Assembly (NCBI GenBank): GCA_017958585.1
Contig: JAGDCK010000097.1
Span: forward strand, 1 to 32,612
Reading direction: 5' to 3'
Length of the DNA stretch: 32,612 nt
From: Lachnospiraceae bacterium
GTDB lineage: Bacteria > Bacillota > Clostridia > Lachnospirales > Lachnospiraceae
The position numbers were made by a program, and so were the translations under genes. This document shows, one piece after another, positions 2,890-18,086 of the stretch (positions within the stretch are counted from its first letter, which is position 1; every line of letters starts with the position of its first letter). Under the pieces are notes generated by a model. The model saw only the letters and a program-made list of their open reading frames with translations, had not been told where the DNA came from and did not search any database.

Positions 2890-4584
2890 ATGAAAAAGCA
2901 GTCTATTGGAAAAAACTTAATAGCTGCGATGATGGTTTTAACCGGCTTGTTTACGAACTCGATCACAGCTTTTGGAGCCGACAAAGGAACTCTTTCAATA
3001 GAAGGAGTCCTGGAGGTGGATGAAGTAGTCATCTACAAGATAGTCGGTTACGACAGTGTAACAGGATACGAATTCAACGAAGCTGTTACAGACTGGATAG
3101 AAGATAAGGGAACGGATTACAAAGGACTTACACCGGCAAAGCTTTTCCAGATGACGGAAGAAAGAGCCGAAGAGTTTTTTGAACTTCTCTTAACAGGATC
3201 CAGAGGAGAGACACAGGAAGATGAAGTCGAAAAGATTTCAGATTCACCGCTCTTCCATAAAACCTACATTGGCAGTGAAGATTATGATATAGCGATGGAC
3301 CCGGGATTCTACCTGATACTTCCAATCGGAGAGAACAGGATCTACAAAATGAAATGGACAAAGATCTCCGCCGGCGAAGAAGTAGAGTTAAGCTACACAG
3401 ACAATGAAGATTACATCTACCCCACCATCGAGAATACACTTACAAAAGAAGACGAAGTTGAATCCGAAGAACCTGAGGATTCAATATTCGCAGTTAAAGA
3501 TGACACGATAACAGTTACATCAGAGATAAGTCTTCCACAGTATCCGGATATCTACTCCAGAGGAAAGACAGTAGAAAATATATACATCCTGATACCTGAA
3601 GACATCACTTACATAGAAGACTCCTTCGACATCACATTAGATGATGATTTATACGGAGAGCAAAGCTTCACAGAAGCTACGATCTACAGAGACAGCGAAG
3701 GAAAAGAGATCCTCTTTGAAAGTGAAGACTGGTTCTACAACCTGGACGGCAGTACAGTAAACGAACCGGATCTGACAGAACTCACGGAGGATGAGGGTTA
3801 CACCATCAAGGTTATATCTCTCGATACAGAGGAGGCTATCGAGAGTTTAACAATAGAGTATCAGCTTTTAAAAGATGATACTTCAAACGACACAGGGATT
3901 TATGAAACGGATGTGGGAATCATCTACAGCATAAGCCCAATGAACACAAACCTTCACGGAAACCTGAAACAACCGGCAACAGTTAATTCTTACGGAATAA
4001 GCGCTACAGTTTGTGAAGGCACCGGTTACACACAAAACAGTGACCGGGAAGAGGTTCTCGAAAATGCCAGGAGACTTGGCGGAGCAACCTTTATGATCTA
4101 CAAATTCACAGGAAAGACTTACGAAGGAGATTTAACAGACAGCCTTGGACATTCCGGTACAGAAGGAGGAGATGCGGTTGGCGAAAATGAAGATGAGGGT
4201 AACGTAAAATATTACGAGTACGATCGTGACAGAAACTTAACCATCGAATATGAACAGGTTAAACAGATCACATGCGACTCACAAGGCGTTGCCAATATAG
4301 GAGGTCTTGATAAAGCGGCATACATGATACGCCAGACAGGATTTCCCAATGGTTATGAATACGCAATCGTCAGTCTCTACATCACCGATTCAGCTTGGGA
4401 TGATGAAGACGTAATGGAAGGCAATTACATAATTAGTACTCTCTGGTTGGATTATCCCACGGTTTATCTACCTGAAACCGGAAAGAGAGGAATCGGAGGT
4501 TATGTACTTGCAGGAATTTTAATATCAGGTTTCGCTCTTATAGAATTAATAGCAAATAAGTACTCATTCGATAAACATCACTAA
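2890..4584 (+). CDS. LPETG-anchored, acidic pilin-like surface protein (candidate minor, tip or basal pilin)
   Basis: ATG at 2890 follows GAGGGGAAG, so the track's 2842 start is an upstream extension. Signal peptide: MKKQSIGKNLIAAMMVLTGLFTNSITAFGA. C-terminal sorting signal: LPETG (4468-4482), hydrophobic helix, then NKYSFDKHH. The N-terminal region (VVIYKIVGY..., GFYLILPIGENRIY) is paralogous to the downstream pilins. A CnaB-like LGGATFMIYKF motif is present. Confidence 0.85.
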   Translation: MKKQSIGKNLIAAMMVLTGLFTNSITAFGADKGTLSIEGVLEVDEVVIYKIVGYDSVTGYEFNEAVTDWIEDKGTDYKGLTPAKLFQMTEERAEEFFELLLTGSRGETQEDEVEKISDSPLFHKTYIGSEDYDIAMDPGFYLILPIGENRIYKMKWTKISAGEEVELSYTDNEDYIYPTIENTLTKEDEVESEEPEDSIFAVKDDTITVTSEISLPQYPDIYSRGKTVENIYILIPEDITYIEDSFDITLDDDLYGEQSFTEATIYRDSEGKEILFESEDWFYNLDGSTVNEPDLTELTEDEGYTIKVISLDTEEAIESLTIEYQLLKDDTSNDTGIYETDVGIIYSISPMNTNLHGNLKQPATVNSYGISATVCEGTGYTQNSDREEVLENARRLGGATFMIYKFTGKTYEGDLTDSLGHSGTEGGDAVGENEDEGNVKYYEYDRDRNLTIEYEQVKQITCDSQGVANIGGLDKAAYMIRQTGFPNGYEYAIVSLYITDSAWDDEDVMEGNYIISTLWLDYPTVYLPETGKRGIGGYVLAGILISGFALIELIANKYSFDKHH

Positions 4585-4606: not shown

Positions 4607-7021
4607 ATGAAAGGATTAGCAAAGAGACTAATAGCAGTAGCCGCAGCATCTATAATGATACTCAGCAGTGCCATTACTGTTCTTGCAGACAGCAATGTTA
4701 CTCTTATCACAAGATCATCTGTTGCAGGTGCTGTTCAGGTAACAAAGACCAGTACTTCATCAATGAGCTTAACAGTTAAACGTACAGGCGATACATTCAA
4801 TGTATATCAGATCGCAAAGATCGTTTGGTCCGAAAGCGCAACCACAGGAGCAGTTAACGTATCCATAGCATGGAACGATGCAATCGCTGCCTGGTTACCC
4901 GCAAACGGATTTACCGATGCGAAGTTCACATCACCTGAAAGCCTGGCAAGAAGTGCAGATGAATCAGCTATCATCGAGATGCTCAGAGCATTCAAGGATG
5001 ACGAAACACTTATGCAGACACTTGCAGCAGATTACCTTGCAGCAGCTCACACAGATTCAACAGACATGACAGCAGGTAACTCAGCAAATGTTACACACGG
5101 AACAGACTTTACTTACAATATCACAGGACTTGGATTTGGTCTTTACTTCGTAGATGCAGACAACTCACAGAGAGATTACCAGCCTTTGATGGTAGAGCTT
5201 ATGCCTGAGCAGACAGGTCCTTCCGGAAACTGGTACATGCCTGAAAACGGAACAAGTGCTTCTCTCAAATACGAAGATATCTACATCACAAAGACAATGA
5301 ACAAGAATACCACAGCAATGGGTATTGCATCACAGGGTGCTTACGATGTAGTAAGAGCAGGTGAGATCACAAGCTTCGAAGTTTTTGTAGCAGTTCCTCA
5401 GTACCTTAAAGATTCATCAGGAAATTATACATACACACTTTACAACGCAATCGATATTATGGCAAAGGGATACAAGCTTGTTTCTTCATCCGCAAAGATC
5501 TTCTTCAAGGATAAAGATGGAAACGAGATCCATCCCGAAGCAATTCCAACACCTGATATATACGGAAACATCACAGTATCAGACAAAGATGTAGTTTATA
5601 CAGCAATCCTTGCAACCGACGCACATGTATATCACATAGCAGGAAACGAAGACGATATCATCTACGGTGTTGACACCAATGATAACGGCGTTGAAAAGAT
5701 CAAATACTACGGAGCAGTTAACGGAAAACTTGAGTCTCTCGGTATTTTGACAAATACATCAGCTAACTGGACAGTAGCATTAAACGCTTATAATACTAAG
5801 CTTGCAGCAGTCGGTTTACCTACTTATACAGGAACAGTTGAAGAGAGAGATTACAAAAAATCAGTTATCTCCATCAAGTTCGATTATACAAAGCTCATGA
5901 CAGAGTGGACCTATGGCGAATTCTTTACAGCAGACGAATTGGCAACTATAGGTAAAGCAGCAGACGAAGTATTCGTTCCCGACACATGGAGAACAACATA
6001 CGATACATATATCAATGACGAGTCATATCTCGGAACAGATGACAATACCAATGTTGCTACAGTTTACTACATCGAAGATACGACCGGAAAGATCAACACA
6101 ACATCAGTAGAGACAAAGGCTTGGACCTATGGTGCACAGATCATCAAGTTGGACGGAAGTACAACAGAGGATCCTGCAGGACCTACATATCTGGCAGGTG
6201 CAGTATTTGATATTTACAGACTGGATGACACATATTGTAATACAACAGCAACAAATAAGGCATCAGTACCTACAGCATCAGATTACAGCAGCTTCGTATG
6301 GTACTCAGATTATGAAGAGCACGCTTCATATGCAACTTCATACCAGGCATGGCTCGGATTTGTAGTGAAAACTCTTCAGTATCACTACCTGTTAAGCGGA
6401 GTTACAGATGCTCCAACGATCCAGACAGCTATTGTAACTGCAACATCAGCAAACCACAATTACAATACACTTGATCTTTTCATCAACAAGTATGCAGCAA
6501 GAGCTAATAATGAGAATTATGCAGATGTGATCCTTCCTTATGCATCATCCATCAAAGCTCAGTACATTCCCGTTTGGGTAGGACCTAATGAGTGCGAGAA
6601 CAGCAGTGCTCCTCACTATCACATGCAGGCTTACGTAGGATTCATGACAGATATCACATCAGAAGCTGATGCAGATGGTATTACAGTATCAGGACTTGAT
6701 CCTACAACATACCTCTTAGTTGAGACAAAGGCTCCTGACGGATACAACGAACTTTCAGAAGCATTACAGTTTAAAATCGACTACTATACTGAATCTGATT
6801 ACGCAAACGAAGGCAATACTTACAAGGGATTCATAGACGATGAAAACAACAAGATAACAAACGGTATTTATACATTACAGGTTGAAAACTTTACTGGACT
6901 TACACTTCCTTCAACCGGTGGAATCGGTACCACGATCTTTACCGGAATGGGTATTGCGGTTATGTTCTTAGCACTTATCTTAGTGGTAATGAAAAATCGT
7001 AAGACCAAGGAAGAATATTAA
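4607..7021 (+). CDS. Sortase-dependent pilin, module A (LPSTG sorting signal, CnaB-type C-terminal domain with E-box)
   Basis: RBS AAAGGAG lies upstream. Signal peptide: MKGLAKRLIAVAAASIMILSSAITVLA. Motifs: IIKLDG...YLAGAVFDIY, and the E-box LLVETKAPDGYNEL. The last strand VENFTG is followed by LPSTGG (6905-6919), a TM helix and MKNRKTKEEY. Confidence 0.9.
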   Translation: MKGLAKRLIAVAAASIMILSSAITVLADSNVTLITRSSVAGAVQVTKTSTSSMSLTVKRTGDTFNVYQIAKIVWSESATTGAVNVSIAWNDAIAAWLPANGFTDAKFTSPESLARSADESAIIEMLRAFKDDETLMQTLAADYLAAAHTDSTDMTAGNSANVTHGTDFTYNITGLGFGLYFVDADNSQRDYQPLMVELMPEQTGPSGNWYMPENGTSASLKYEDIYITKTMNKNTTAMGIASQGAYDVVRAGEITSFEVFVAVPQYLKDSSGNYTYTLYNAIDIMAKGYKLVSSSAKIFFKDKDGNEIHPEAIPTPDIYGNITVSDKDVVYTAILATDAHVYHIAGNEDDIIYGVDTNDNGVEKIKYYGAVNGKLESLGILTNTSANWTVALNAYNTKLAAVGLPTYTGTVEERDYKKSVISIKFDYTKLMTEWTYGEFFTADELATIGKAADEVFVPDTWRTTYDTYINDESYLGTDDNTNVATVYYIEDTTGKINTTSVETKAWTYGAQIIKLDGSTTEDPAGPTYLAGAVFDIYRLDDTYCNTTATNKASVPTASDYSSFVWYSDYEEHASYATSYQAWLGFVVKTLQYHYLLSGVTDAPTIQTAIVTATSANHNYNTLDLFINKYAARANNENYADVILPYASSIKAQYIPVWVGPNECENSSAPHYHMQAYVGFMTDITSEADADGITVSGLDPTTYLLVETKAPDGYNELSEALQFKIDYYTESDYANEGNTYKGFIDDENNKITNGIYTLQVENFTGLTLPSTGGIGTTIFTGMGIAVMFLALILVVMKNRKTKEEY
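6896..6932 (+). repeat. Sorting-signal DNA repeat, copy 1 (37 nt)
   Basis: The sequence ggacttacacttccttcaaccggtggaatcggtacca is identical to copy 3 and differs from copy 2 at 2 positions. Confidence 0.9.
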
Positions 7022-7041
7022 GAGAGGGGAAGGTGATCAAT

Positions 7042-10000
7042 ATGAAGCTTAAAAACATTTTAAAGTCATTATTAACAGTAGTATTAGCAGTATCAATGAT
7101 TTCCACTGAGGCATCCGCTATCACCGGTGAGTCCCTCAGCAACAAAGAAAGCGACACAGGAACCCAGGTACATAAGGTAGACAATTCCGCAAACACCGGT
7201 TTATTCAAGGTTCTCATGTCAGATTCTTCTGATGAGATGACTGTTTACCAGATCGCCACAATGGACCTTACAAACGGCACAGTTTCCTGGATCCCCGAGG
7301 TTCAGAACTGGATCGGAGTTTCAGCCGGCGGTGCGACAACAAACGCTTCAGCAGACGGAAAAGCATTTGCAGCTTATTACAAGCCCGAGCTTTTAGCTTC
7401 AGCTTCAACAGCTGTTCAGACAGACTTTTACAATGCATTATATGGTAAGATCAACGGAACAGCAGGAATAGATTTTGCTAACTGCCCTGTCAGCGTTGAG
7501 ACAAGCGAGACAAATATCAACTCAGGTAAGGTTGTAAAAGCTTCATCTCAGGATCAGATAGCTTTTTACCTTAAAAATCCTACTGATACATTTTTGGTAA
7601 TTGCCGATAAGACATATGTTCCCAGGCAAGGTTATCAGAACGGAGCTAACGGCGGTACAATTTATATCGCAGGTGAAGAAGTAACATATCAGGTGGTTGA
7701 TGAGAACGGAAGTACTACACAGTCACTTGTACTCACAGATTCAAATTATGCAACAGCAGGTTTGATTCCCGTTACATACTTTATTCTTCATGATGCAGTG
7801 GATGTTCCATCAGCCAGAATCGCAGAAGGAAGTATTTATCAGGAAGCAGCACTTGGAAGCTATACATTTAACGATATGCCCATCGGCTTATATGCAGTAG
7901 TGGCAAACAGTGGATCCAAGATTTATTCTCCTCTTACAGTAGCTCTTATCCCTAACAGAGACGGTGCTACAGGAGCTTGGTACTTAAGCGATGAGATCTC
8001 AGTTTCATTGAAGGCTGCAGAGCTTACAATGGAAAAGACCATCAACGGCAAGAAGTCAGATATCGTTCATGTAGGCGAGGATGTACAGTTCGAAATTACA
8101 TTTAACATTCCTGAATATACAGAGCGAAGAGTAGAAAATACTCAGACAGGAAAGTATGAATTCAGAAACTCCATCAAGAAGTATACACTTACCTTCGACG
8201 ATGTACTTGACTCAGCTTTTACACTTGATGCAGATTCAGTTACAGTAAAATACAGAAATGACTCCAGCGATGCTTGGGAGGAGTTCCCTGAGAAGTATTA
8301 CAATTCACTTATCGCTTCTCCGGCAGCAAGCGAGAATGACTACGGTGTATATGTAGGTGGATGTTCACCTTCACATATGTATCTGTACAAGATCTTTATC
8401 AACAACTACAAGCACTATGACGGAGTTACATCCGCAACTGCAGGCGCAACATATGATCCCGATAAGGATAAATATTATGTAATGGGACATGCTTACTACT
8501 ATGAGAGAGATGGTGCTTATTATCTCATGGAGAATGATACAGCACAGAACATGCCTGCTTACTATGGTAACAGCTCTACAACATATGTACCTGTAACCCC
8601 CGGAACCACAGTACTTACAGGAAACCAGATCAGAGCACTTTATTCAAGCTACACAAAGGATACAATCGGACACGGCTGGAAACTCTTCCCTGCATCACAG
8701 TATCCTGAATATGCATTAAATATCTTCAACGTATCCTTCAACTATGATGTGATGCTTGACGATAACTTTGACCTTAGCAACCTTGAACTTCAGATCAGAT
8801 ACAATGCAGAAGTAAACAAGACTATCGATATGGGTTCAGAGGACAATACAAACTACGTTAAGATGACATATGAGACTAACTCACAGGGTACTACAACAGA
8901 TGTTATCGACGATGAAGTAAGAGCTTACTCTTACGGAGTAAACGTAGTAAAGATCGATGGTGATACAGCTGACAGCGCATCACCCACATACCTGGCAGGT
9001 GCAGTATTCCAGCTCTACAGAGAGATTGGAAGCTTTACAGGAACAGACGACACAGCAACATTCGATGCTCTTTATGACGGCGGAACATCCTATACAGTAG
9101 GAGAGAATACGATTGACCTTACAGTCGGTACATCAACAGCAGATGACCTGATCCAGTTCCTCAATACAAACAATGTTCAGACTTACACAGCAGAGGTTAA
9201 CGGAGAGTACAAGGTATTCGGTCTCCAGACATTGTCAGATCGTACCTATGGCACAAGCTTCAACGGAACCATCACATCAGTTGCAAATGCAAACGGTGTA
9301 AACGTAAACGGTCTTGATGTAGGTAACTACGTACTCGTAGAGACCAATCCTCCTTCAAGTGAGTACAACGTACTCGCAGAGGATATCTACTTTGAGATCA
9401 ATCCTCTCACAGAGGAAGTTGCAAACAGCAATTACAACGGCAGCTATGCAGGATTTATGACAGCAGGCGGAAATGACGCCACATACATGGCAACAGGTTA
9501 TTACAAGATGAACGTCCTTAACTACAAGGGACTTACCCTTCCTTCAACCGGTGGAATCGGTACTAAGATATTTACAGTTAGCGGTTTGTTACTGATGATG
9601 ATCGCAATGGTGGTGATCCTTATGAAGAGCAGAAGAAAAGCTACAACTACATTAATGGGACTTGCATTTGCAGTAGCTTTGATACTTGGAAGCTCAATGG
9701 GTTCAGCTAAGGCTGCAACACCCATCGCCATTGGAAACAATCAGTACGGTACAGAAGTTACCGGTAACGGTACCACAACATTTACAGTAGAGCTTAACCT
9801 TCCCGGCGACAGGATCAAGGTTTATCAGCTGGCAGAACTTAGATATGAGAACGGCACTTTTACATCACCTACATGGTCAACGGCCTTCGGTGAGGATGTC
9901 AGAACATCAGAGTTTTCAGCATATTCAACTCCCGAGCTTCTGGGAGCAGCTGATCCTTCAGTACAGGTTAGATTCCTTGAATGGGCAAACACATGGTGTT

Positions 10001-11892
10001 CACAGCGAGCTGCTCTCCAAGGTATGGATTTCTCAGGAGTTGAGTTTACATCTCTCTCCCAGGACGGATTGTATTACACAGTAAGAAACGTTCCCTACGG
10101 TATCTACCTCATTAAGGCAGACAATACCTCAGGAAAGAACTATACACCCCTTACAGTAAATGCAATGCCTACACAGGAAGGACCTACAGGAAAGTGGTTC
10201 CTGAACGAAAACATTAATGCAACACTTAAGTTCTCATCAATTACGATTGACAAGACTATCAACGGAAACGATGTTTATGACACAGTACATGCAGGCGAGA
10301 ATGTCGAATTTGCCATCGTGGCAGAAGTTCCCAAATATCCCGGCATCACTCCTAAGTATGACTTGACAGATCCTTCAAACCCCGTTGTGGTAAAGGACTT
10401 AAGCGGAAATACAGTTTATGATTACAGTGGTTACACATATGCCATCACTGATATCATGGACAGAAATGACGGTTTTGAACTTGTTGGCAACTTTACAGTA
10501 GAATATGCTACAGACGGACCTGAGAACTGGATCACACTTCCGACTACAGACTATACTTTACTCTTTGCCAACGCAGCTGAATCAAATGCATCAACAGGAC
10601 TTTTCACATACTATGATGCATCAAATTCAAACAACGTGATGTTCCTCGATGTAGAGGTAAGTGAGTCTAACAGCTCAACATATGTTTACAAATATTACAG
10701 CCTGGATCCCGACAGCCAGAACGTGACATTACTCTATGAGACAACATCAGTAGCTATCAACGTACCTGCAACAGTTACAAATACAACAGTTCTTCAGAAC
10801 TACAAAGAGGCAATGGGAATCGATGTTGCATCATTCACCAGAGCAAATGCTTCCAGCTGGCAGACAGTTTACAACGTATCATTTGATTACGAAGCATTAT
10901 ATGAACTGAACGCATTGTACGTAAGGATAACATACGATGCAACAGCAGACGGAACAACAGTTGCAGCCAACGTAGCTAAGGCAACATACCAGAGCGGTAT
11001 TGACGGAAGCTACTCAGATATCGAAGATACAGTATATGCATACTCATACATCCTTAACCTTGTTAAGTCAGATGGTGACAACGCAGGTACATATCTTGCA
11101 GGAGCAATCTTTAACCTTTACAAAGAAGCTTATACATTTGCTCCCGATCTGGCAACAAGAGACGCTTCAGCAACCGCAGATTATCAGTACTTTACCTGGA
11201 AGAAAGCTAACCTTGATGACTCAGTCACAACAGCTCCTACAGGTTATGAGACAATGGCAGCAGTTGATGCCCTCACAGGTCAGGACTTCTACTACAGAGT
11301 TATCGCAGTTGAAGCAAGTGATACACCTTGTGAACTTGATGACCTTACAGCGGCACACAGCCACATAGTAGTTTACAACGTACTTCAGAGCAACATTACC
11401 TCAAACAATACTGCTAACGGTGTCAATGTCAACGGACTTGAGCCCGCATCATACATCCTCATCGAGACAGCAGCTCCCGAAGGATACAACAGATTGAATG
11501 AGGCAATCAGATTTGAGATTACAGAGCTTACAGCAGAAGGTTCATTACTCTTCGAAGGTGATGAGAACAACAAAGAAGACTTCATGGCAGACGAGATCGT
11601 TGAGATCACAGCACCCAGAGTAACAGATTCTTCGGCAGCAGGATATGCTGATTACATTGCAGAACTTACAGCTAAGAGAGCAGCTTACAATCCCGCTGAC
11701 GGAAAGCATCACCTGGTTTACACAGACAGCGTATATCCTGTAGACGTAAAGAACTACAGAGGACTTACACTTCCTTCAACCGGTGGAATCGGTACCAAGA
11801 TCTTCACAGTGGCAGGTATAGCAGTAATGCTTCTGGCAATCCTCATCATCGTGATGAAGAACAGAAAGAATAAAGAGGACGAACAGTACTAA
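7042..11892 (+). CDS. Tandem pilin fusion: module B and module C in one uninterrupted frame (1616 aa), each with its own signal-peptide-like segment, CnaB motif, E-box and LPSTG sorting signal
   Basis: ATG at 7042 follows GGGGAAGG. Module B has signal peptide MKLKNILKSLLTVVLAVSMISTEASA, YLAGAVFQLY, VLVETNPPSSEYNVL, and LPSTGG at 9538-9552 followed by a TM helix and KSRRK. There is no stop; the frame continues into ATTTLMGLAFAVALILGSSMGSAKA-ATP. Module C has YLAGAIFNLY, ILIETAAPEGYNRL, and LPSTGG at 11770-11784 followed by a TM helix and MKNRKNKEDEQY, then a stop. Confidence 0.85.
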   Translation: MKLKNILKSLLTVVLAVSMISTEASAITGESLSNKESDTGTQVHKVDNSANTGLFKVLMSDSSDEMTVYQIATMDLTNGTVSWIPEVQNWIGVSAGGATTNASADGKAFAAYYKPELLASASTAVQTDFYNALYGKINGTAGIDFANCPVSVETSETNINSGKVVKASSQDQIAFYLKNPTDTFLVIADKTYVPRQGYQNGANGGTIYIAGEEVTYQVVDENGSTTQSLVLTDSNYATAGLIPVTYFILHDAVDVPSARIAEGSIYQEAALGSYTFNDMPIGLYAVVANSGSKIYSPLTVALIPNRDGATGAWYLSDEISVSLKAAELTMEKTINGKKSDIVHVGEDVQFEITFNIPEYTERRVENTQTGKYEFRNSIKKYTLTFDDVLDSAFTLDADSVTVKYRNDSSDAWEEFPEKYYNSLIASPAASENDYGVYVGGCSPSHMYLYKIFINNYKHYDGVTSATAGATYDPDKDKYYVMGHAYYYERDGAYYLMENDTAQNMPAYYGNSSTTYVPVTPGTTVLTGNQIRALYSSYTKDTIGHGWKLFPASQYPEYALNIFNVSFNYDVMLDDNFDLSNLELQIRYNAEVNKTIDMGSEDNTNYVKMTYETNSQGTTTDVIDDEVRAYSYGVNVVKIDGDTADSASPTYLAGAVFQLYREIGSFTGTDDTATFDALYDGGTSYTVGENTIDLTVGTSTADDLIQFLNTNNVQTYTAEVNGEYKVFGLQTLSDRTYGTSFNGTITSVANANGVNVNGLDVGNYVLVETNPPSSEYNVLAEDIYFEINPLTEEVANSNYNGSYAGFMTAGGNDATYMATGYYKMNVLNYKGLTLPSTGGIGTKIFTVSGLLLMMIAMVVILMKSRRKATTTLMGLAFAVALILGSSMGSAKAATPIAIGNNQYGTEVTGNGTTTFTVELNLPGDRIKVYQLAELRYENGTFTSPTWSTAFGEDVRTSEFSAYSTPELLGAADPSVQVRFLEWANTWCSQRAALQGMDFSGVEFTSLSQDGLYYTVRNVPYGIYLIKADNTSGKNYTPLTVNAMPTQEGPTGKWFLNENINATLKFSSITIDKTINGNDVYDTVHAGENVEFAIVAEVPKYPGITPKYDLTDPSNPVVVKDLSGNTVYDYSGYTYAITDIMDRNDGFELVGNFTVEYATDGPENWITLPTTDYTLLFANAAESNASTGLFTYYDASNSNNVMFLDVEVSESNSSTYVYKYYSLDPDSQNVTLLYETTSVAINVPATVTNTTVLQNYKEAMGIDVASFTRANASSWQTVYNVSFDYEALYELNALYVRITYDATADGTTVAANVAKATYQSGIDGSYSDIEDTVYAYSYILNLVKSDGDNAGTYLAGAIFNLYKEAYTFAPDLATRDASATADYQYFTWKKANLDDSVTTAPTGYETMAAVDALTGQDFYYRVIAVEASDTPCELDDLTAAHSHIVVYNVLQSNITSNNTANGVNVNGLEPASYILIETAAPEGYNRLNEAIRFEITELTAEGSLLFEGDENNKEDFMADEIVEITAPRVTDSSAAGYADYIAELTAKRAAYNPADGKHHLVYTDSVYPVDVKNYRGLTLPSTGGIGTKIFTVAGIAVMLLAILIIVMKNRKNKEDEQY
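9529..9565 (+). repeat. Sorting-signal DNA repeat, copy 2
   Basis: The sequence ggacttacccttccttcaaccggtggaatcggtacta has 2 mismatches relative to copies 1 and 3. Confidence 0.9.
9538..9714 (+). other. Internal junction: a cell-wall sorting signal fused to the signal peptide of the next pilin module
   Basis: Translation reads LPSTG-GIGTKIFTVSGLLLMMIAMVVIL-MKSRRK-ATTTLMGLAFAVALILGSS-MGSAKA. The basic patch serves both as the sorting-signal tail and as the signal-peptide n-region. An in-frame ATG at 9622 is preceded by GGTGA at 9612-9616. Confidence 0.8.
11761..11797 (+). repeat. Sorting-signal DNA repeat, copy 3
   Basis: The sequence ggacttacacttccttcaaccggtggaatcggtacca is identical to copy 1. 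Confidence 0.9.
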
Positions 11893-11916: not shown

Positions 11917-11955
11917 GGCAGAAGACAGGATAATTAATCTGTCTTCTGCCATTTT
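11917..11955 (+). terminator. Rho-independent terminator ending the pilin operon
   Basis: A perfect 12-bp stem forms between ggcagaagacag (11917-11928) and ctgtcttctgcc (11939-11950). The loop is 10 nt and attttg follows. Confidence 0.85.
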
Positions 11956-11988: not shown

Positions 11989-12017
11989 TTTTCAGACTAT
12001 ACAAAATGTTATATAAT
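11989..12017 (+). promoter_or_regulatory. Candidate sigma-A type promoter of the sortase operon
   Basis: An extended -10-like TGtTATATAAT lies at 12007-12017, with a weak -35 (TTTTCA, 11989-11994). RBS GGGGAG lies 9 nt before the ATG at 12037. An 11-bp inverted repeat (11958-12000) overlaps the -35. Confidence 0.45.
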
Positions 12018-12036: not shown

Positions 12037-13404
12037 ATGCAGCAGAATAAAAGTTTTAACTACATGAATCTACTGCTTGTGCTGGTCTTCATTGCAGGAC
12101 TGGCTATTTTGCTGTACCCAAATATTTCCGATTATGTCAATCAGATGAACAGTTCCAAGGCCGTGTCGGAATACGATGAGACACTGGCAGAGATGACCGC
12201 CGCAGAGCGAAGCGAGATGATGATGGTGGCTGATACCTACAATACTTCACTTTCCACCAACCAGTCACGTTTCGTGGATATGACAAACGATGAATTAAAG
12301 GAATACAATCGTACCCTAAACGTTGGCGGCGACGGAATGATGTGTTATCTAAAGATCGACAAGCTGGGTGTAAATCTTCCGGTTTACCACGGAACAACTG
12401 AGGAAGTGCTCCAGAAATACGTTGGTCATATCGAGGGAACAAGCCTTCCCACAGGTGGAATAGGAACCCATTGCGGTCTCTCCGGACACCGCGGACTCCC
12501 CAGTGCGGTGCTTTTTACAAACCTGGACAGAATGGAGGTAGGAGATGAATTTTCCATATTTGTCCTCGGTGAAGAGCATGTTTACGTGGTGGATCAGATA
12601 TCAACGGTTTTGCCCAGTGACATGTCACCCCTTGCCATTGATTCCACAAAGGATTTCTGTACGCTGGTGACATGTACGCCATATGGTGTAAATACTCACA
12701 GACTTATGGTCAGAGGTGTGCGCGTGGGAGATGACGGAAACAAGGAGGGACTTATCGATACCGATGACTCCGAAAGCTCATCAAGCAGCAGGGGAATGAC
12801 CAGAGAACAAATAGTAAATGCCATAGCAGTCGGTATGACAGGTCTCTTTGGACTTATCATCATACCTTTCATACTGGTGGCACCTCCAACAAAGAGAAAG
12901 AATCTCATATTAAGACCATGGGATGACAAGATAGTGGAAGTAATAGATGCCGCAACGGTGGTATCAAACAGTGCCACCAGAGCCAACTGGGAGGTTGCCG
13001 ATGTGGCACGAGAATCCGACTGGCTGGCGGGACTCAGACAGTGGAACGAGAATATGGTAGGCCCGGTCGGTACATATGAGGCCGAGGAGAAGGATCTGTC
13101 CTATGAGCAGGTTGTATCCGAAGGAAATTATGAGGAAAGAGACTGGGACGACTACAGATATGAGGATGGTTTGGACAATCTGAACCTTGATTTTCAATAT
13201 CAGGTAAGTCAGGCGCCGTCGGGCAAGCTTTCTGAGGAAAAGGACAGAAACGAACGGGACGAGAGACCGTGGGATGATGACATCCTGCAGAAGGTTGATC
13301 AGGAGTGGGGCAAGCTTGACGGCCCGGCCCACAAGATAGCGATACAGTTCATAGAGATCAAAAAGATTCTGGAAGAAAGAACCTATGGAAAGAAAAAATC
13401 ATGA
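12037..13404 (+). CDS. srtC: Class C (pilin-polymerising) sortase with a C-terminal TM helix and a cytoplasmic extension of about 170 aa
   Basis: The N-terminal TM is LLLVLVFIAGLAILLYP. The core matches the class C pattern: LPVYHGTTEEVLQKYVGHIEGTSLPTGGIGTHCGLSGHRGLP, LFTNLD, TLVTCTPYGVNTHRLMVRG (Cys codon 12673-12675). A second TM (AIAVGMTGLFGLIIIPFILVAPP) is followed by a long acidic, Trp-rich tail. Confidence 0.9.
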   Translation: MQQNKSFNYMNLLLVLVFIAGLAILLYPNISDYVNQMNSSKAVSEYDETLAEMTAAERSEMMMVADTYNTSLSTNQSRFVDMTNDELKEYNRTLNVGGDGMMCYLKIDKLGVNLPVYHGTTEEVLQKYVGHIEGTSLPTGGIGTHCGLSGHRGLPSAVLFTNLDRMEVGDEFSIFVLGEEHVYVVDQISTVLPSDMSPLAIDSTKDFCTLVTCTPYGVNTHRLMVRGVRVGDDGNKEGLIDTDDSESSSSSRGMTREQIVNAIAVGMTGLFGLIIIPFILVAPPTKRKNLILRPWDDKIVEVIDAATVVSNSATRANWEVADVARESDWLAGLRQWNENMVGPVGTYEAEEKDLSYEQVVSEGNYEERDWDDYRYEDGLDNLNLDFQYQVSQAPSGKLSEEKDRNERDERPWDDDILQKVDQEWGKLDGPAHKIAIQFIEIKKILEERTYGKKKS

Positions 13405-16150
13405 GACAAAAGCAAAAAAACTGAATAACAGGAAAAAGTTTTTGCTTTGCCTGCAGGTCATCATAGCAGTGGTGGCAGTGGGTGCTCTTGTGATGGGCGT
13501 AAAAGTATCGGACATTAAGAAACTGGTACTTTTCGCAGACACTGTGTCCGGAAATGAATTTCAGACAGTTTCGGGTAGTGACCTGGATAACGAAGATGAT
13601 CAGGATACCGGGGATGGCGGAGAAAATAGTGAAAACGGCGATACCGTTTCAGATTCCGATGTTTCATCGGGAGACATTGTCTCACCCGGAGAACCCGAGA
13701 CCCCCGAGACACCGGAAACTCCGGAGTCCACAGTGCCCGTGGCAGTTCTTCATTACATCAGATATGTGGAAGTTTATCCTGAACCCACAATAGACAGTGA
13801 AGAAACTGATAATGGATCGGATAACGGAAATGAAACCGGTGAATCTGAGGATACAGGAAACACAGGCAATGAGAATACTCCGTCCTCAGGAGAAGAGACC
13901 GTATCTGACGGAGACAGCGGATCAAATGACGCAAACGATGGCGATCAGGGTCAGGGAAATTCGGAAAATAATGACCCCGGAAACGGATCTGGTAATGATC
14001 CTCAGAATGGATCCGAATCTGCACCGGCCGGACCAACCTACAGGAAAGTTCCCTCCACCATGGAGTTTACTTCCGTTGCGGCTGCCATTGCAGCGGCAGA
14101 GGATTACTATGTGATAAGCAATGAGCACAGGGGTCAGTCCGAAACTGAGTTTTTGCCTTATATCACACTGTGCGGTGACTCAGAGGTAAACACCACCATC
14201 AATGTGACTGCAAATACCCATAACCTCACTCTGGACCTTAACGGACATGATATTGTCTTCAAGGATACGGCATATTTTAATATTTCCGCGTCCATGGAGT
14301 TTACAATAACGGATTCTTCTCAGACTCCGGGAGTTGTAAAGGGTTCATACGAATACATTTTTGACGGAACCGGAACCTTGAACATTGACGGAGGAAACTT
14401 TATAAGCGAGCAGACCTCCATAATCGGCAGCATGCTTTTATATGCAAACGGCGGTTTCTATGTTTATTCCGATGATTTCGGATTCGGCAAGATCAGTTCA
14501 CCGATCCTCAGAGAAAGGGATGTGTTCATATCCGACACCAGGACGATCCACGGTGTTGAATACACAGGCTTCTACATTGACAGAGCAACATTTGTAAACA
14601 GCTACACTGTAAATGAGCAGGCATTTAGCGATTACTACGGAAACTTCAGGGATGCCTGGAGCGGCGCCATGGAAAAAAGTGCCTCAAACAGCAATGTGAT
14701 CGTAAAGATCGACACATTAAATACCGAGTCAAAGACAGTCAGTGTAACAGAGCTAAGCATTTTATTAAAGGGAAAGATCCTTCTCGACGGTCTTGACTTT
14801 GAGAGAAGTGAAGGCTTCAGAGACGGTTTCTTTAAGATATCTGCCGGAGAACTCATATTAAATGATGTGACCTTAAACGGCAGTATTACCACAGGAGATG
14901 TGAGATATTCCACAGCACCGCTTATCAGCTATGAAGGCGGAAAACTCTGCATTTCGGGAAGCAGTGAAAAGGGTACACTCATAGAGAACAATCTGGCAAA
15001 TACCACATCCGCGGGAATCTTTGTAAAGGGCGGTCTGTCCATGGATATGGCAGGTTACGTGGATGTATGTGACAATTTCGTGATGGTGACTCCCGACGAT
15101 ATTTATGTGAATGGTACAAAGCCTTCCAATATTTTCCTGGGTGATGATGCTTCGGTTACCCTTATAAGCAGGGTCAGATGCAACAAAAAAATAGGAATTT
15201 CCTATGGCGATCCCATCATAGCCGGTTATACATATGTGGGTGCCATCGGAGCGGATTATCAGCAGTCCTTTGCGGAAGACGAGATCGACGATCCCGAAAC
15301 CGAGGGAGACGAGCGACTTGCCTTCTTTACATCCGATGCGGTGGGATATAAGTCATATTATATGGTCTACAACGAGACCTCCAATCTCTTTTATTGGGAC
15401 AGAAGCGTGAAGCTTTTGCCGGAGGCAGGCATCGACAGGATCGAGTACATTCTGATCCCCATAGGAATGCTCCTTCTCATAATAGTGCTCTTTGCCATCA
15501 GAAAAAATGCCCGACTCGCAAGGGGTATAGTAAGCGGAATTGCGGTATTATTTATACTTGCGGGCGCAGGCTTTGCAGTATATCATATTGAATTGGAGAA
15601 AGAAATCTCACGTGAAAATCAGGAGATTATAAAGGAGATCAGCGCCTCCATAAAGAAAAACTCACTGGCGAATGTTCCGGCTTTGGACAGCGATATCATT
15701 CCCGAGGTCGTGACAGAGGACAGAGAGGTTGTGGAAGAAAACAAAAATATATCTGTTCCGAAGGACGGAAGAGAATATATTGGCGTCATCGAAATACCGG
15801 ATTATGATATCACACTTCCGGTGCTTGCAGAGTACAGCGGAGCCAGCATGAAGACTACTCCCTGTGTTTATTACGGTGACATTGACACTTCGGATCTGGT
15901 TATCGTGGGACACAACTACGATACACAATTCGGCGCACTTAGGGAATGCGAGGACGAAACCGAAGTGATACTTACACTTACGGACGGTAGTGTCTATGAG
16001 TACACGAGTTATCTCACCGAGGAGATGAACCCTGATGAAGTGGACAGGATGATAGAGGGTAACTGGGATCTGACCCTGTTTACCTGCAGCTTGAACGGTG
16101 AAAAACGTGTGGCAATAAGATGCGATTTGCTTGAAACGGGAGTAGAATAA
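13385..16150 (+). CDS. Fusion protein: signal anchor, acidic low-complexity stalk, large beta-rich surface domain, LPEAG sorting-signal-like segment, second TM, C-terminal sortase catalytic domain
   Basis: The ATG at 13385 overlaps the srtC end by 20 nt. N-terminal TM: FLLCLQVIIAVVAVGALVMG. The stalk is rich in D, S, G, N and E and contains PETPETPETPES. LPEAG (15416-15430) is followed by ILIPIGMLLLIIVLFAI, RKNARLAR and GIVSGIAVLFILAGAGFAVYHI. The sortase domain (about 15770-16147) has IEIPDYDITLPV, VIVGHNY (His), LTLFTCS (Cys codon 16085-16087) and RVAIRC (Arg). Confidence 0.85.
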   Translation: MERKNHETKAKKLNNRKKFLLCLQVIIAVVAVGALVMGVKVSDIKKLVLFADTVSGNEFQTVSGSDLDNEDDQDTGDGGENSENGDTVSDSDVSSGDIVSPGEPETPETPETPESTVPVAVLHYIRYVEVYPEPTIDSEETDNGSDNGNETGESEDTGNTGNENTPSSGEETVSDGDSGSNDANDGDQGQGNSENNDPGNGSGNDPQNGSESAPAGPTYRKVPSTMEFTSVAAAIAAAEDYYVISNEHRGQSETEFLPYITLCGDSEVNTTINVTANTHNLTLDLNGHDIVFKDTAYFNISASMEFTITDSSQTPGVVKGSYEYIFDGTGTLNIDGGNFISEQTSIIGSMLLYANGGFYVYSDDFGFGKISSPILRERDVFISDTRTIHGVEYTGFYIDRATFVNSYTVNEQAFSDYYGNFRDAWSGAMEKSASNSNVIVKIDTLNTESKTVSVTELSILLKGKILLDGLDFERSEGFRDGFFKISAGELILNDVTLNGSITTGDVRYSTAPLISYEGGKLCISGSSEKGTLIENNLANTTSAGIFVKGGLSMDMAGYVDVCDNFVMVTPDDIYVNGTKPSNIFLGDDASVTLISRVRCNKKIGISYGDPIIAGYTYVGAIGADYQQSFAEDEIDDPETEGDERLAFFTSDAVGYKSYYMVYNETSNLFYWDRSVKLLPEAGIDRIEYILIPIGMLLLIIVLFAIRKNARLARGIVSGIAVLFILAGAGFAVYHIELEKEISRENQEIIKEISASIKKNSLANVPALDSDIIPEVVTEDREVVEENKNISVPKDGREYIGVIEIPDYDITLPVLAEYSGASMKTTPCVYYGDIDTSDLVIVGHNYDTQFGALRECEDETEVILTLTDGSVYEYTSYLTEEMNPDEVDRMIEGNWDLTLFTCSLNGEKRVAIRCDLLETGVE
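15416..15589 (+). other. Internal junction: LPEAG sorting-signal-like segment fused to the membrane anchor of a sortase domain
   Basis: Translation reads LPEAG-IDRIEY-ILIPIGMLLLIIVLFAI-RKNARLAR-GIVSGIAVLFILAGAGFAVYHI. The layout (motif, helix, basic patch, helix) matches the junction at 9538-9714. Confidence 0.7.
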
Positions 16151-17421
16151 TGGAGTTGTTCAGTCTTGCACTCAGTCTTTCGGGAGTCTTCGTCATAGCT
16201 ATCATGATAGTGGGCGTAAGTCTCTCGAAGATGACCTATAAACGCAAAAAAAAGCTCCTTTTGTGGATGTCATTTCACTGCGGAACTGTGTTTATGGACA
16301 TGATGGTAAGCGTGTCGGGGGAATTCGACGGCTATCTGTATGTGGTCATTGGGAAAATAGCGGAGTTTTTGCTCTTTTGCGGGGCAGTTTACTATGCCCA
16401 TCTGTATCTTGAGGATATTTTCAGAAAGATGATGAGACGGGTCACAGCCTACAGAAGGGGTGTGATTGTCTATCTCGCACTTTTAAATATCATCAACATT
16501 TCCAGCGTGATCACGGGATTTACATTCAGGATAGAAAACGCTTCCACCGTAAAAAACGGACCCTTCTGGTACGTGGTATATTTTTTCGCGGCCATGGTTT
16601 ACTTTGCGGATATCTGTATTATAATGTATAATAAAGTGAAAAACCGTGAATCGTTGAGCCAGACCTATGTGCTTGGTGCCTTTTTTGTGCTAAGCCTTCT
16701 GGTGCAGCCCATCTGCTATCTGTATGAGGCTGTATTTCCCACATATTTTGCGATCTCACTGTGTTTTATAATCTATTACATATATTACAACGTGAATCAG
16801 TACAAGTGGTTTATGGAAAACGAAGTGGAGAGGGAGAAGCGCAAGACCAAGCTCATGCTCTCGCAGATCCAGCCCCATTTTATCTTTAATTCACTTACGA
16901 CCATAAAGTATCTGGTGATGGATGACCCGGTGGTGGCCGAGATGGCAGTCACCAAATTTACCAGTTATCTGAGAGCCAATTTAGAGTCCCTGTCCGTTGA
17001 CAGGACCATAGTTAACTTTGATAAGGAGCTTGAACACACCGAGATATATCTGTGGCTTGAGCAGCTTAGATTTGAAGACTTTTTGAAGGTAGAGTACTAT
17101 GTGGAGACCAGGGATTTTAAGATCCCGATGCTGACCTTACAGCCCATAGTCGAAAATGCCGTAAAGCACGGTATATGCAAGAAAAAGGACGGAGGCACCG
17201 TCACCATCAGAGTAAAGGAAAAGTCGGATGCCTACGAGATCGAGATAAAGGATGACGGCGTAGGATTTGATGTGGAGAACGTAATAAACGATCCCCAATA
17301 TGACAATGGCGGAATCGCAAATGTTAGCAAGCGTCTCACCGGATTTAACTATTCAACCATGAGTATCCTCAGTAAAAAGGATTGCGGTACCACTGTGAAA
17401 ATATCACTGACCAAGGAGTAG
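16150..17421 (+). CDS. Sensor histidine kinase, LytS/YehU family (multi-pass membrane sensor domain, His_kinase domain, GHKL ATPase)
   Basis: The ATG overlaps the preceding stop (TAATG). There are about six hydrophobic helices in the first 210 aa or so. The phospho-acceptor region LSQIQPHFIFNSLTTIKYL, the N-box QPIVENAVKHG and the G-box KDDGVGF are present. Confidence 0.85.
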   Translation: MELFSLALSLSGVFVIAIMIVGVSLSKMTYKRKKKLLLWMSFHCGTVFMDMMVSVSGEFDGYLYVVIGKIAEFLLFCGAVYYAHLYLEDIFRKMMRRVTAYRRGVIVYLALLNIINISSVITGFTFRIENASTVKNGPFWYVVYFFAAMVYFADICIIMYNKVKNRESLSQTYVLGAFFVLSLLVQPICYLYEAVFPTYFAISLCFIIYYIYYNVNQYKWFMENEVEREKRKTKLMLSQIQPHFIFNSLTTIKYLVMDDPVVAEMAVTKFTSYLRANLESLSVDRTIVNFDKELEHTEIYLWLEQLRFEDFLKVEYYVETRDFKIPMLTLQPIVENAVKHGICKKKDGGTVTIRVKEKSDAYEIEIKDDGVGFDVENVINDPQYDNGGIANVSKRLTGFNYSTMSILSKKDCGTTVKISLTKE

Positions 17422-17426
17422 ACCAT

Positions 17427-18086
17427 ATGGCCGAAAACGTCAAGGAACAAAAGCAAATTATATATTATGACCTGGATACGGAGGGAAATACCGAGGAAAA
17501 AGCTGAGGACGTGTATGAAAAATACGTCTTTGATGAGACTGCAGCTCCTGAGACCTCTGACCAAAGCGGGGAGCCGGAAGAGTTGAACTACGATGAGAAC
17601 ATGGATGACTCCATCTCTGAGGAGGAAGATCAGAGTGACGATTTCGGAGGCCTTTCAGAGGAGGACATGAAGCGCCTTGACGGACTGGAGGATGAGGAGG
17701 AAGAACTCAGGGAAGATTTTTTTGCGGCGGATCTTTCCGGTGATGATCGCACAAGACTTGAAGAGAGGATAAGAGCCATGGAGGAGGATATCGCCACCAT
17801 CAAACAGGGCGTATCCAATATCCTCGATATCAAATTCGACATGATGTACCAGTCCCTTCGTACGGAGATCCACGAGGATGCCATAAAGACTTACAGAAAT
17901 ATCCAGGCAGTCATTGTGGAGGAGGATGCAAAGCAGAATCACGTTCTCTTTGGCATGGACGGAAATACCAATAAATTAAAGAACAGAATGAATCATCTGC
18001 TTATTTTCTCCATCGTCTCATTTGTGACATCCATCCTGGTAATGCTTATGCAGATATTACCGGCACTTGGATTTAATCTGTTTTGA
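17427..18086 (+). CDS. Acidic tail-anchored membrane protein, function unknown
   Basis: The ATG at 17427 follows AAGGAG at 17412-17417, so the track's 17382 start overlaps the kinase. The first 120 aa or so are extremely rich in Asp and Glu (SEEEDQSDDFGGLSEEDMKRLDGLEDEEEELRED). A predicted helical segment follows, then a single C-terminal TM (LLIFSIVSFVTSILVMLMQILPALGF). Confidence 0.7.
   Translation: MAENVKEQKQIIYYDLDTEGNTEEKAEDVYEKYVFDETAAPETSDQSGEPEELNYDENMDDSISEEEDQSDDFGGLSEEDMKRLDGLEDEEEELREDFFAADLSGDDRTRLEERIRAMEEDIATIKQGVSNILDIKFDMMYQSLRTEIHEDAIKTYRNIQAVIVEEDAKQNHVLFGMDGNTNKLKNRMNHLLIFSIVSFVTSILVMLMQILPALGFNLF

Follow-up and report, generated by a model that had tools for sequence, protein, structure and literature searches.

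The window analysed here comprises positions 1 to 32,612 (32,612 nucleotides) of contig JAGDCK010000097.1 from a Lachnospiraceae bacterium (GenBank assembly GCA_017958585.1), read on the forward strand. It carries a pilus operon in which two predicted sortase-type pilins, designated module B and module C, share one open reading frame (ORF); the sorting signal of the first runs, with no stop codon between, into a putative signal peptide for the second. The elements of this fused gene were located as follows.

7042-11892 (+): fused pilin B-pilin C gene, 1616 residues from ATG 7042, with two matches each to PF00746 and PF17802 (Pfam)
7042-7119 (+): N-terminal signal peptide of module B, MKLKNILKSLLTVVLAVSMISTEASA, predicted to be cut before ITGE (hydropathy scan and reading of the sequence)
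7120-9549 (+): mature module B (pilin type B), up to Thr836 of LPST, with matches to TIGR04226 and NF033902 and profile matches on solved pilins
8989-9018 (+): YLAGAVFQLY of module B
9328-9369 (+): E-box of module B, YVLVETNPPSSEYN
9538-9552 (+): internal LPSTG sortase motif
9553-9624 (+): TM1, the 24-residue hydrophobic transmembrane (TM) helix of the first sorting signal, GIGTKIFTVSGLLLMMIAMVVILM, predicted to run out-to-in
9622-9624 (+): in-frame ATG (Met861) with GGTGGTGATCCTT / GGTGGTGA upstream, a possible non-conserved internal start
9625-9639 (+): basic loop KSRRK, net charge +4, predicted to be cytoplasmic
9640-9714 (+): h- and c-regions of the internal signal peptide, ATTTLMGLAFAVALILGSSMGSAKA, ending in AKA, with a predicted signal peptidase I site before Ala892
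9550-9714 (+): predicted membrane hairpin G837-A891, the 55 residues that would remain after both cuts
9715-11781 (+): mature module C (pilin type C), up to Thr1580, with profile matches to solved structures, a structural model and Foldseek matches
11452-11490 (+): E-box of module C, YILIETAAPEGYN
11770-11889 (+): terminal sorting signal (Pfam), consisting of LPSTG (11770-11784), a TM helix and the tail KNRKNKEDEQY

Counted from ATG 7042, the plus-strand frame has 1616 codons before it reaches the stop codon at 11890-11892. An alternative in-frame start at GTG 7033 would give 1619 residues; ATG 7042 is the likelier start because it is preceded by a strong Shine-Dalgarno sequence, GAGAGGGGAAGG (anti-Shine-Dalgarno duplex -14.4 kcal/mol). 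The initial annotation had described a frame that passes from the internal LPSTG through AKA (9706-9714) to 9715 without a stop, leaving a hairpin of 55 residues between the two cuts; every element was found where it had been placed, and the length of the hairpin was confirmed. Pfam marked two Gram_pos_anchor and two SpaA-domain stretches in the fused protein. A hydropathy scan yielded exactly four strong hydrophobic segments, namely the N-terminal signal peptide, TM1, the second hydrophobic stretch of the junction (h2) and the C-terminal TM helix. KSRRK serves as the positive tail of the first sorting signal and the n-region of the second signal peptide at once. Module B holds a pilin-motif-like WYLSDEISVSLK (K324, 8011-8013) and MEKTING, the start of a D2 isopeptide-type domain, while module C, whose mature-type N-terminus ATPIAIG begins at 9715 (predicted mature start ATPIAIGNNQYGTEVTGNGTTTFTVELNLPGDR), holds WFLNENINATLK (K1063, 10228-10230), IDKTING and YLAGAIFNLY.

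Both modules were matched by TIGR01167 (LPXTG anchor, NCBIfam), and module B also by the isopeptide D2 domain family TIGR04226 (29.2 bits). An E-box of the YxLxETxAPxGY type and an LPXTG motif with hydrophobic helix and positive tail (KSRRK in B, KNRKNK in C) are present in each. Each is also preceded by a Sec signal peptide, N-terminal for B and, for C, internal and homologous to that of a stand-alone pilin, P0020. Each module has an invariant lysine (K324, K1063) immediately ahead of domain 2, in the context W......LK, and these two are plausible candidates for the pilin-motif acceptor lysines. Against NF033902 (SpaH/EbpB LPXTG-anchored major pilin; cut-off 95 bits), module B scored 57.9, module C 45.6 and the separately encoded pilin A 51.2 bits; all three are related to, but outside, that curated subfamily. 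A profile of module C matched solved pilins in the PDB at 3e-22, including Clostridium perfringens CppA. Module B gave no match when its single sequence was searched against PDB sequences; as a six-sequence profile it matched 9uvr at 8e-13 and the group B Streptococcus backbone pilin 2xtl. The AlphaFold2 (AF2) model of mature module C had a mean predicted local distance difference test score (pLDDT) of 78.8 and a predicted template modelling score (pTM) of 0.69, and its top 48 Foldseek matches against the PDB were all sortase-assembled pilins, mostly shaft pilins (top matches CppA, S. sanguinis PilA, T6, SpaD, FimP, BcpA, SpaA and RrgB). Judged on these features, modules B and C are complete sortase-type pilins; covalent polymerisation into a fibre, another trait of such pilins, is a prediction for them. 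The fused ORF departs from the rule of one pilin per gene that otherwise holds for sortase pilins.

Two further features of the modules were recorded. At approximately 11320-11370, inside the last CnaB-type domain, C-type modules have an invariant Cys...HxH (C1430, H1439 and H1441 in module C), which may be a metal site or a cross-link site; a motif of the same type occurs in pilin A of the window (CENSSAPHYHMQAY) and in the A-type P0012, and is absent from module B of the window. Module B has a conserved insert without a family match between domain 2 and the last CnaB domain (approximately 8300-8800, residues 420-600). The insert carries GCSxSH and YYYxRDGAYxL, and the motif recurs in a stand-alone relative, P0014.

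Homologues of the joint were sought in several collections. An initial homologue search returned three relatives with 35-40% identity in the same length class (1540-1722 residues), and in all three the frame runs without a stop through the internal LPSTGG, the helix and the basic patch into another hydrophobic stretch and a small-x-small site. A word-indexed homologue search with a junction profile returned single pilins only; the fused ones were found by an exhaustive hidden Markov model (HMM) scan of 1.84 billion cluster representatives, which gave 11 full-length fused clusters at 50% identity, each crossed at the joint by a single HMM stretch, and the fragment cluster P0013. P0002 (40% identical) is the thirteenth cluster with a stop-less junction. 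Five proteins from Logan and ENA assemblies make up the P0005 cluster, the longest of their contigs reaching 358 kb. At the DNA level, scanning of species-representative genomes followed by an ORF search gave, apart from the window, eight distinct contigs with the fused ORF, including one from the cultured isolate Pseudobutyrivibrio ruminis AD2017. The relatives found in this way belong to Lachnospiraceae metagenome-assembled genomes and to Pseudobutyrivibrio. Intact fused coding sequences are also present in RefSeq, WP_176754418.1 from Pseudobutyrivibrio sp. 49 and WP_177184219.1 from sp. UC1225, under the name of LPXTG anchor proteins. Among 182 pilin-family proteins compared, 172 end in a sorting signal and 23 have an internal one; all 23 belong to the fused family, in its 13 clusters, and none to another pilin family. 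With this recurrence, chance does not come into question. No exact copy of the window's fused protein, in its 1619- or its 1616-residue form, was found in other assemblies.

Two ordinary neighbouring pilin genes might have been joined, as an artefact or a pseudogene, by the loss of a stop codon or by an indel in a single assembly, and split arrangements do exist in relatives, with a stop, GGAGGA and ATG in locus L085 and an ATGA overlap in locus L087. The joint is open, however, in 13 clusters at or below 50% identity drawn from NCBI metagenome-assembled genomes, ENA, Logan and three isolates. The junction DNA is fully diverged, differing at most codons between relatives, which are therefore independent sequences, and the junction varies in length among lineages with the frame kept every time. 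Ratios of nonsynonymous to synonymous substitution rates (dN/dS) were calculated for two close pairs, L004/L005 and L006/L007, and were 0.09 and 0.16 for the whole ORF, 0.12 and 0.24 for module 1, 0.06 and 0.10 for module 2, and 0.40 and 0.08 for the 60-residue junction, respectively; both modules and the junction are under purifying selection. For the family as a whole the artefact is already refuted, and for this locus it is extremely improbable. The initial annotation had left it to orthologues to show whether the junction was unique to one assembly, and every close orthologue found, including those of three cultured Pseudobutyrivibrio strains, has the stop-less form. The joint, as read in these sequences, is real because it is conserved in at least 13 distantly related clusters, cultured Pseudobutyrivibrio included.

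The anatomy of the junction was compared in 14 proteins from the 13 clusters. Cleavage sites were placed by aligning the proteins on their conserved mature N-terminus (x-T-x-[IV]-x-[LI]-x-N-x-x-G-x-x-V-[TS]-G) and read by hand. TM1 is 23-24 residues long and the basic loop 5-10 residues with a net charge of +3 to +7 in 14/14 junctions, and the second hydrophobic stretch with its c-region spans 21-28 residues up to the aligned site. The internal sortase motif is LPSTG in 12 of the 13 clusters and LPDTG in P0007, and the extended internal LPxTGG.GT..F is conserved as well as the terminal copy. The aligned site fits [AVS]xA in 13/13 clusters, with Ala always at -1 and A, V or S at -3 (AKA, AKA, AHA, VKA, VFA, VYA, AAA, AYA, VFA, SEA, AYA, ANA and ANA). 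Counted by hand at this site, the hairpin between the predicted cuts measures 54-57 residues in 13/13 clusters. Exactly four strong hydrophobic segments were found by hydropathy scan in each of the 12 full-length fused proteins scanned.

The origin of the second hydrophobic segment is indicated by P0020, a stand-alone C-type pilin. Its N-terminal signal peptide, LLSLVLAIMICISMIPLNTFA, followed by VTPVSISN, can be aligned residue for residue with the window's LMGLAFAVALILGSSMGSAKA, followed by ATPIAIGN. On the P0020 contig (L085) the preceding pilin gene has a normal end, VVRRRQGNTNTSF / LPSTGGMGTLLFTILGAAVMIGAIGFVVVRRRQGNTNTSF, then a stop, 25 nucleotides that include GGAGGA, and an ATG; in L087 the neighbouring pilin genes are likewise separate and overlap by ATGA. 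By this homology the window's second hydrophobic segment is a signal peptide by descent, its aligned cleavage site included. The topology first proposed for the joint, with one helix out-to-in and the next in-to-out, agrees with the conserved TM1 length, the loop charge, the [AVS]xA site and the signal-peptide homology, and the initial interpretation is supported.

A different coupling of neighbouring pilins was seen in P0017 (L087, 9990-10100), a stand-alone B-type pilin with an unusually long cytoplasmic tail of approximately 40 residues after its sorting signal. Its stop codon overlaps the start of the next pilin gene (ATGA).

Translation of module C from a start of its own was considered next to read-through. 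On such a reading the locus is effectively two genes, with ATG 9622, in the basic patch, as the usual start of module C and read-through from B a side effect. The ATG with a Shine-Dalgarno-like sequence that had been noticed earlier is indeed present: its anti-Shine-Dalgarno duplex, -9.2 kcal/mol, places it among the top 4% when 50 internal in-frame NTG codons are compared, and lies within the range of the true starts in the window's operon (-3.9 to -14.4 kcal/mol), and MKSRRKATTT... would make a normal signal peptide. In L002 the corresponding codon is a GTG with AGGAAGGGGAGA before it (-10.3 kcal/mol). A usable in-frame internal start is thus found in two of the nine loci, the window and L002. 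It is absent from the other seven, so it is not conserved: the junction region of L003 and L084 contains no NTG codon in frame, and the remainder have duplexes of -4.3 kcal/mol or weaker and would produce a signal peptide without a basic n-region. Moreover, a stop at the end of module B is absent in every fused member, and ribosomes that finish B therefore continue into C. The seven loci without an internal start make the polyprotein the conserved route to module C, and the two-gene reading is very unlikely. An internal promoter was also sought and rejected, since 26 promoter-like matches were counted and 23.8 +/- 3.9 were expected from shuffled sequence.

The processing proposed for the fused protein would proceed as follows. 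The N-terminal signal peptide would take module B through Sec, and TM1 would stop transfer out-to-in, the basic patch staying in the cytoplasm. In known sortase substrates the sorting signal halts translocation and so lets sortase cleave LPXTG (PMC4617865). Here h2 would then re-insert in-to-out as an internal signal sequence, module C would be translocated, and the terminal sorting signal would stop transfer again. Signal peptidase I would cut after AKA (A891/A892), and the class C sortase would cut both LPST/G sites and join the threonines to pilin lysines, for which K324 and K1063 are candidates. The expected products are B and C at a fixed 1:1 ratio from one translocon, together with the 55-residue hairpin, both of whose ends would lie outside.

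That ORF 7042-11892 is a genuine, conserved two-pilin polyprotein processed in this way is considered probable (about 0.72). Several points weigh against it. The window's own stop-less joint was read from an assembled contig only, which is also a point for the artefact discussed above. The window and L002 retain a plausible internal start, from which some module C could be made separately there. The context of K324 and K1063 is non-canonical (...SLK and ...TLK in place of YPKN). Both internal cuts, by sortase and by signal peptidase, were deduced from features of the sequence, and their positions were predicted by homology and by the -3/-1 rule. An AF2 model covering the junction and the domains on either side (pLDDT 35, pTM 0.30, 4 sequences) was uninformative, and its helices at TM1 and h2 were given no weight.

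The same dependence on deduced cuts leaves room for a fusion that is real and incompletely processed. The internal signal could remain as an uncleaved signal-anchor or the internal LPSTG could go unused, so that C would be tethered N-terminally, or B, hairpin and C would form one membrane protein displaying two pilin-like ectodomains. Even in the precedent of the streptococcal zinc metalloproteases (Zmp), the second site is called putative or proposed (PMC3518915). Against this, 13/13 clusters keep Ala at -1 and one of A, V and S at -3 where the stand-alone homologue has a real signal-peptidase site, and the internal LPxTGG.GT..F is conserved like the terminal one; in addition, an N-terminally tethered pilin could not leave the membrane in a wall-anchored fibre. 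Incomplete processing is accordingly judged unlikely. A further proposal, also unlikely, gives the hairpin a role as an assembly device beyond that of a linker. Because an uncut hairpin would keep the B sorting signal and the N-terminal domain of C at one spot on the membrane, the B-acyl intermediate of the class C sortase could be resolved on the lysine of C in the same chain, which would yield an obligate B-C heterodimer and an alternating two-subunit shaft. We know of no alternating two-subunit pilus shaft described in Gram-positive bacteria.

The history of the family was examined by BLAST and a neighbour-joining (NJ) tree, in which the pilins separated into paralogue groups A, B and C. 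B-C fusions account for ten clusters and A-C fusions for the other three, those of P0011, P0012 and P0013. P0011 is from an NCBI assembly, and the other two represent the Pseudobutyrivibrio type; P0152 and P0153 also have a first module of type A. In L007 (P. ruminis AD2017) the first module of the fused ORF (5613-10787) is of type A, and its operon has no separate A or B gene. P0016 was rejected as a split C-type pilin, being the gene at the A position of the P0010 locus. The NJ subtrees of the B and C modules are congruent, so the fusion would predate the radiation of the family; judged by their C modules, the A-C forms branch from among the B-C forms. The A-C form likely arose when B was deleted through recombination between the sorting-signal sequences of A and B, which are nearly identical. 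The NJ tree is without bootstrap support, and this history is offered as a suggestion. The joint itself probably arose when neighbouring pilin genes lost everything from the end of the tail through the stop codon and spacer to the start codon, whereupon basic tail and basic n-region merged.

The system was compared with described ones. It resembles the canonical pilus loci (C. diphtheriae SpaABC, S. pneumoniae RrgABC, C. perfringens CppA and S. sanguinis PilABC) in its CnaA/CnaB-type immunoglobulin-like domains, E-box, LPXTG motif, conserved lysine before domain 2 and adjacent class C sortase, and the predicted fold of module C is closest to shaft pilins. Those loci have one pilin per gene with one signal peptide and one sorting signal, whereas two pilins with internal signals share an ORF here; the subunits of the fused ORF are also large (approximately 725-810 residues when mature), unlike those of the canonical loci, and score 46-58 bits against NF033902, below 95. 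The separate neighbouring pilin genes of L085 and L087 share the paralogue families, the operon type and the succession of basic tail and basic n-region with the fused form, and differ from it in having a stop and a start, with a 25-nucleotide spacer containing GGAGGA in L085 and the ATGA overlap in L087.

Full-text literature searches aimed at this question turned up neither a natural sortase-substrate polyprotein nor a report of pilins with internal LPXTG motifs. The initial annotation knew of no such polyprotein; the type of junction is not wholly without precedent, the closest being in the streptococcal Zmp/IgA1 proteases (PMC3518915). Their N-terminal anchor has the order signal peptide, LPXTG, TM, TM, and the second segment has been proposed as a second signal peptide with a site S2 (PMC3518915, citing Bender and Weiser 2006 and Takenouchi-Ohkubo 2006). 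Both systems thus have a signal peptide, an LPXTG motif, two hydrophobic segments, the second with a putative signal-peptidase site, and then an exported passenger. In Zmp only a short peptide separates the first signal peptide from LPXTG, and the protease passenger has no C-terminal sorting signal; here an 810-residue pilin precedes it, and a second pilin with its own signal follows. A Pfam scan of the fused protein matched no metalloprotease family, and there is no sequence relationship to Zmp.

A second parallel lies outside bacteria. In the flavivirus C-prM-E-NS1 polyprotein, host signal peptidase separates the ectodomains of one ORF, in which a stop-transfer helix is followed by an internal signal sequence. 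The likeness consists in the stop-transfer helix standing directly before the internal signal sequence and in two ectodomains fixed at 1:1. The flavivirus system operates in the eukaryotic endoplasmic reticulum without a sortase, whereas here the upstream product would also be freed by transpeptidation at LPXTG.

The fused gene lies among further genes for pilins and sortases, and the remaining features of the operon were as follows.

2890-4584 (+): fourth pilin-like protein, LPETG, with a weak GramPos_pilinD1 match
4607-7021 (+): pilin A, 804 residues, LPSTG, a separate gene with a normal stop, 20 nucleotides upstream of the fused gene
11917-11950 (+): strong terminator-like hairpin, 13 bp (7 GC), directly after the fused gene
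11989-12017 (+): promoter-like site TTTTCA-17-TATAAT, before the sortase gene
12037-13404 (+): class C (pilin-polymerising) sortase with catalytic TLVTC and a C-terminal extension (NF033745, 245.6 bits, cut-off 160)
13385-16150 (+): 921-residue protein with a C-terminal sortase domain (TLFTC, residues approximately 800-915; Pfam/NCBIfam)

The LPETG protein may be a basal or tip subunit served by a different sortase. A terminator followed by a promoter between the pilin and sortase genes would fit high pilin and lower sortase expression. In the class C sortase the domain covers residues 15-229 and is followed by an extension of approximately 225 residues, composed of a hydrophobic segment and a long acidic tail rich in Trp and Asp. 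Its gene end is overlapped by the gene start of the 921-residue protein, in which an acidic low-complexity stretch, approximately 500 residues without a family match and hydrophobic segments precede the sortase domain. Counterparts of this protein were found in L001 (14815-17751), L002 (11969-14830) and L087 (13048-16209), with sizes of 921-1053 residues, and an ORF in L007 (12183-15266) was matched to it by length and position. The fusion to a sortase domain is an unusual sortase architecture.

At 16150-17421 (+) the window encodes a LytS/YehU-type histidine kinase (PF06580 and HATPase_c), present also in L001 (17813-19069) and L002 (14827-16098); an ORF matched in size and position takes its place in L007 (15272-16558). 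After the kinase, at 17382-18086 (+), lies a gene for an acidic protein with a C-terminal hydrophobic segment. It may be speculated that the LytS-type kinase senses pilus assembly or the cleaved sorting-signal hairpin; a signalling role for the released 55-residue hairpin, read by this conserved downstream kinase, is a possibility separate from the assembly device considered above.

These pilus operons are headed by a gene for a protein of approximately 780 residues with an N-terminal membrane anchor and no family match (399-2744, + in the window), a homologue of which follows a stand-alone B-type pilin in L086 (4120-6504). The window, L001 and L002 share one gene order, in which two unannotated proteins precede pilin A and the fused gene, and the class C sortase, the sortase-domain protein (approximately 950 residues) and the LytS-type kinase come after it. 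L003 and L084 agree with this order as far as their contigs reach, and L007 has an A-C variant of it; in all, the order around the joint matches in the five loci that could be read far enough.

A sortase substrate usually has, per gene, one signal peptide, one passenger and one C-terminal sorting signal. The fused family departs from this one-passenger rule and has been retained under selection. If the processing is confirmed, it would be the first natural sortase-substrate polyprotein found in the literature searched and a bacterial counterpart of the viral polyproteins cut by signal peptidase. Since the fusion is carried by cultured Pseudobutyrivibrio strains, experiments are feasible, and the family makes testable how subunit ratio and order are set in mixed pili, whether sortase acts on substrates still tethered at the translocon, and what becomes of cleaved sorting-signal peptides. 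Annotation pipelines label each fused protein as a single 'LPXTG cell wall anchor domain-containing protein', and pilin inventories of rumen and gut Lachnospiraceae therefore undercount subunits.

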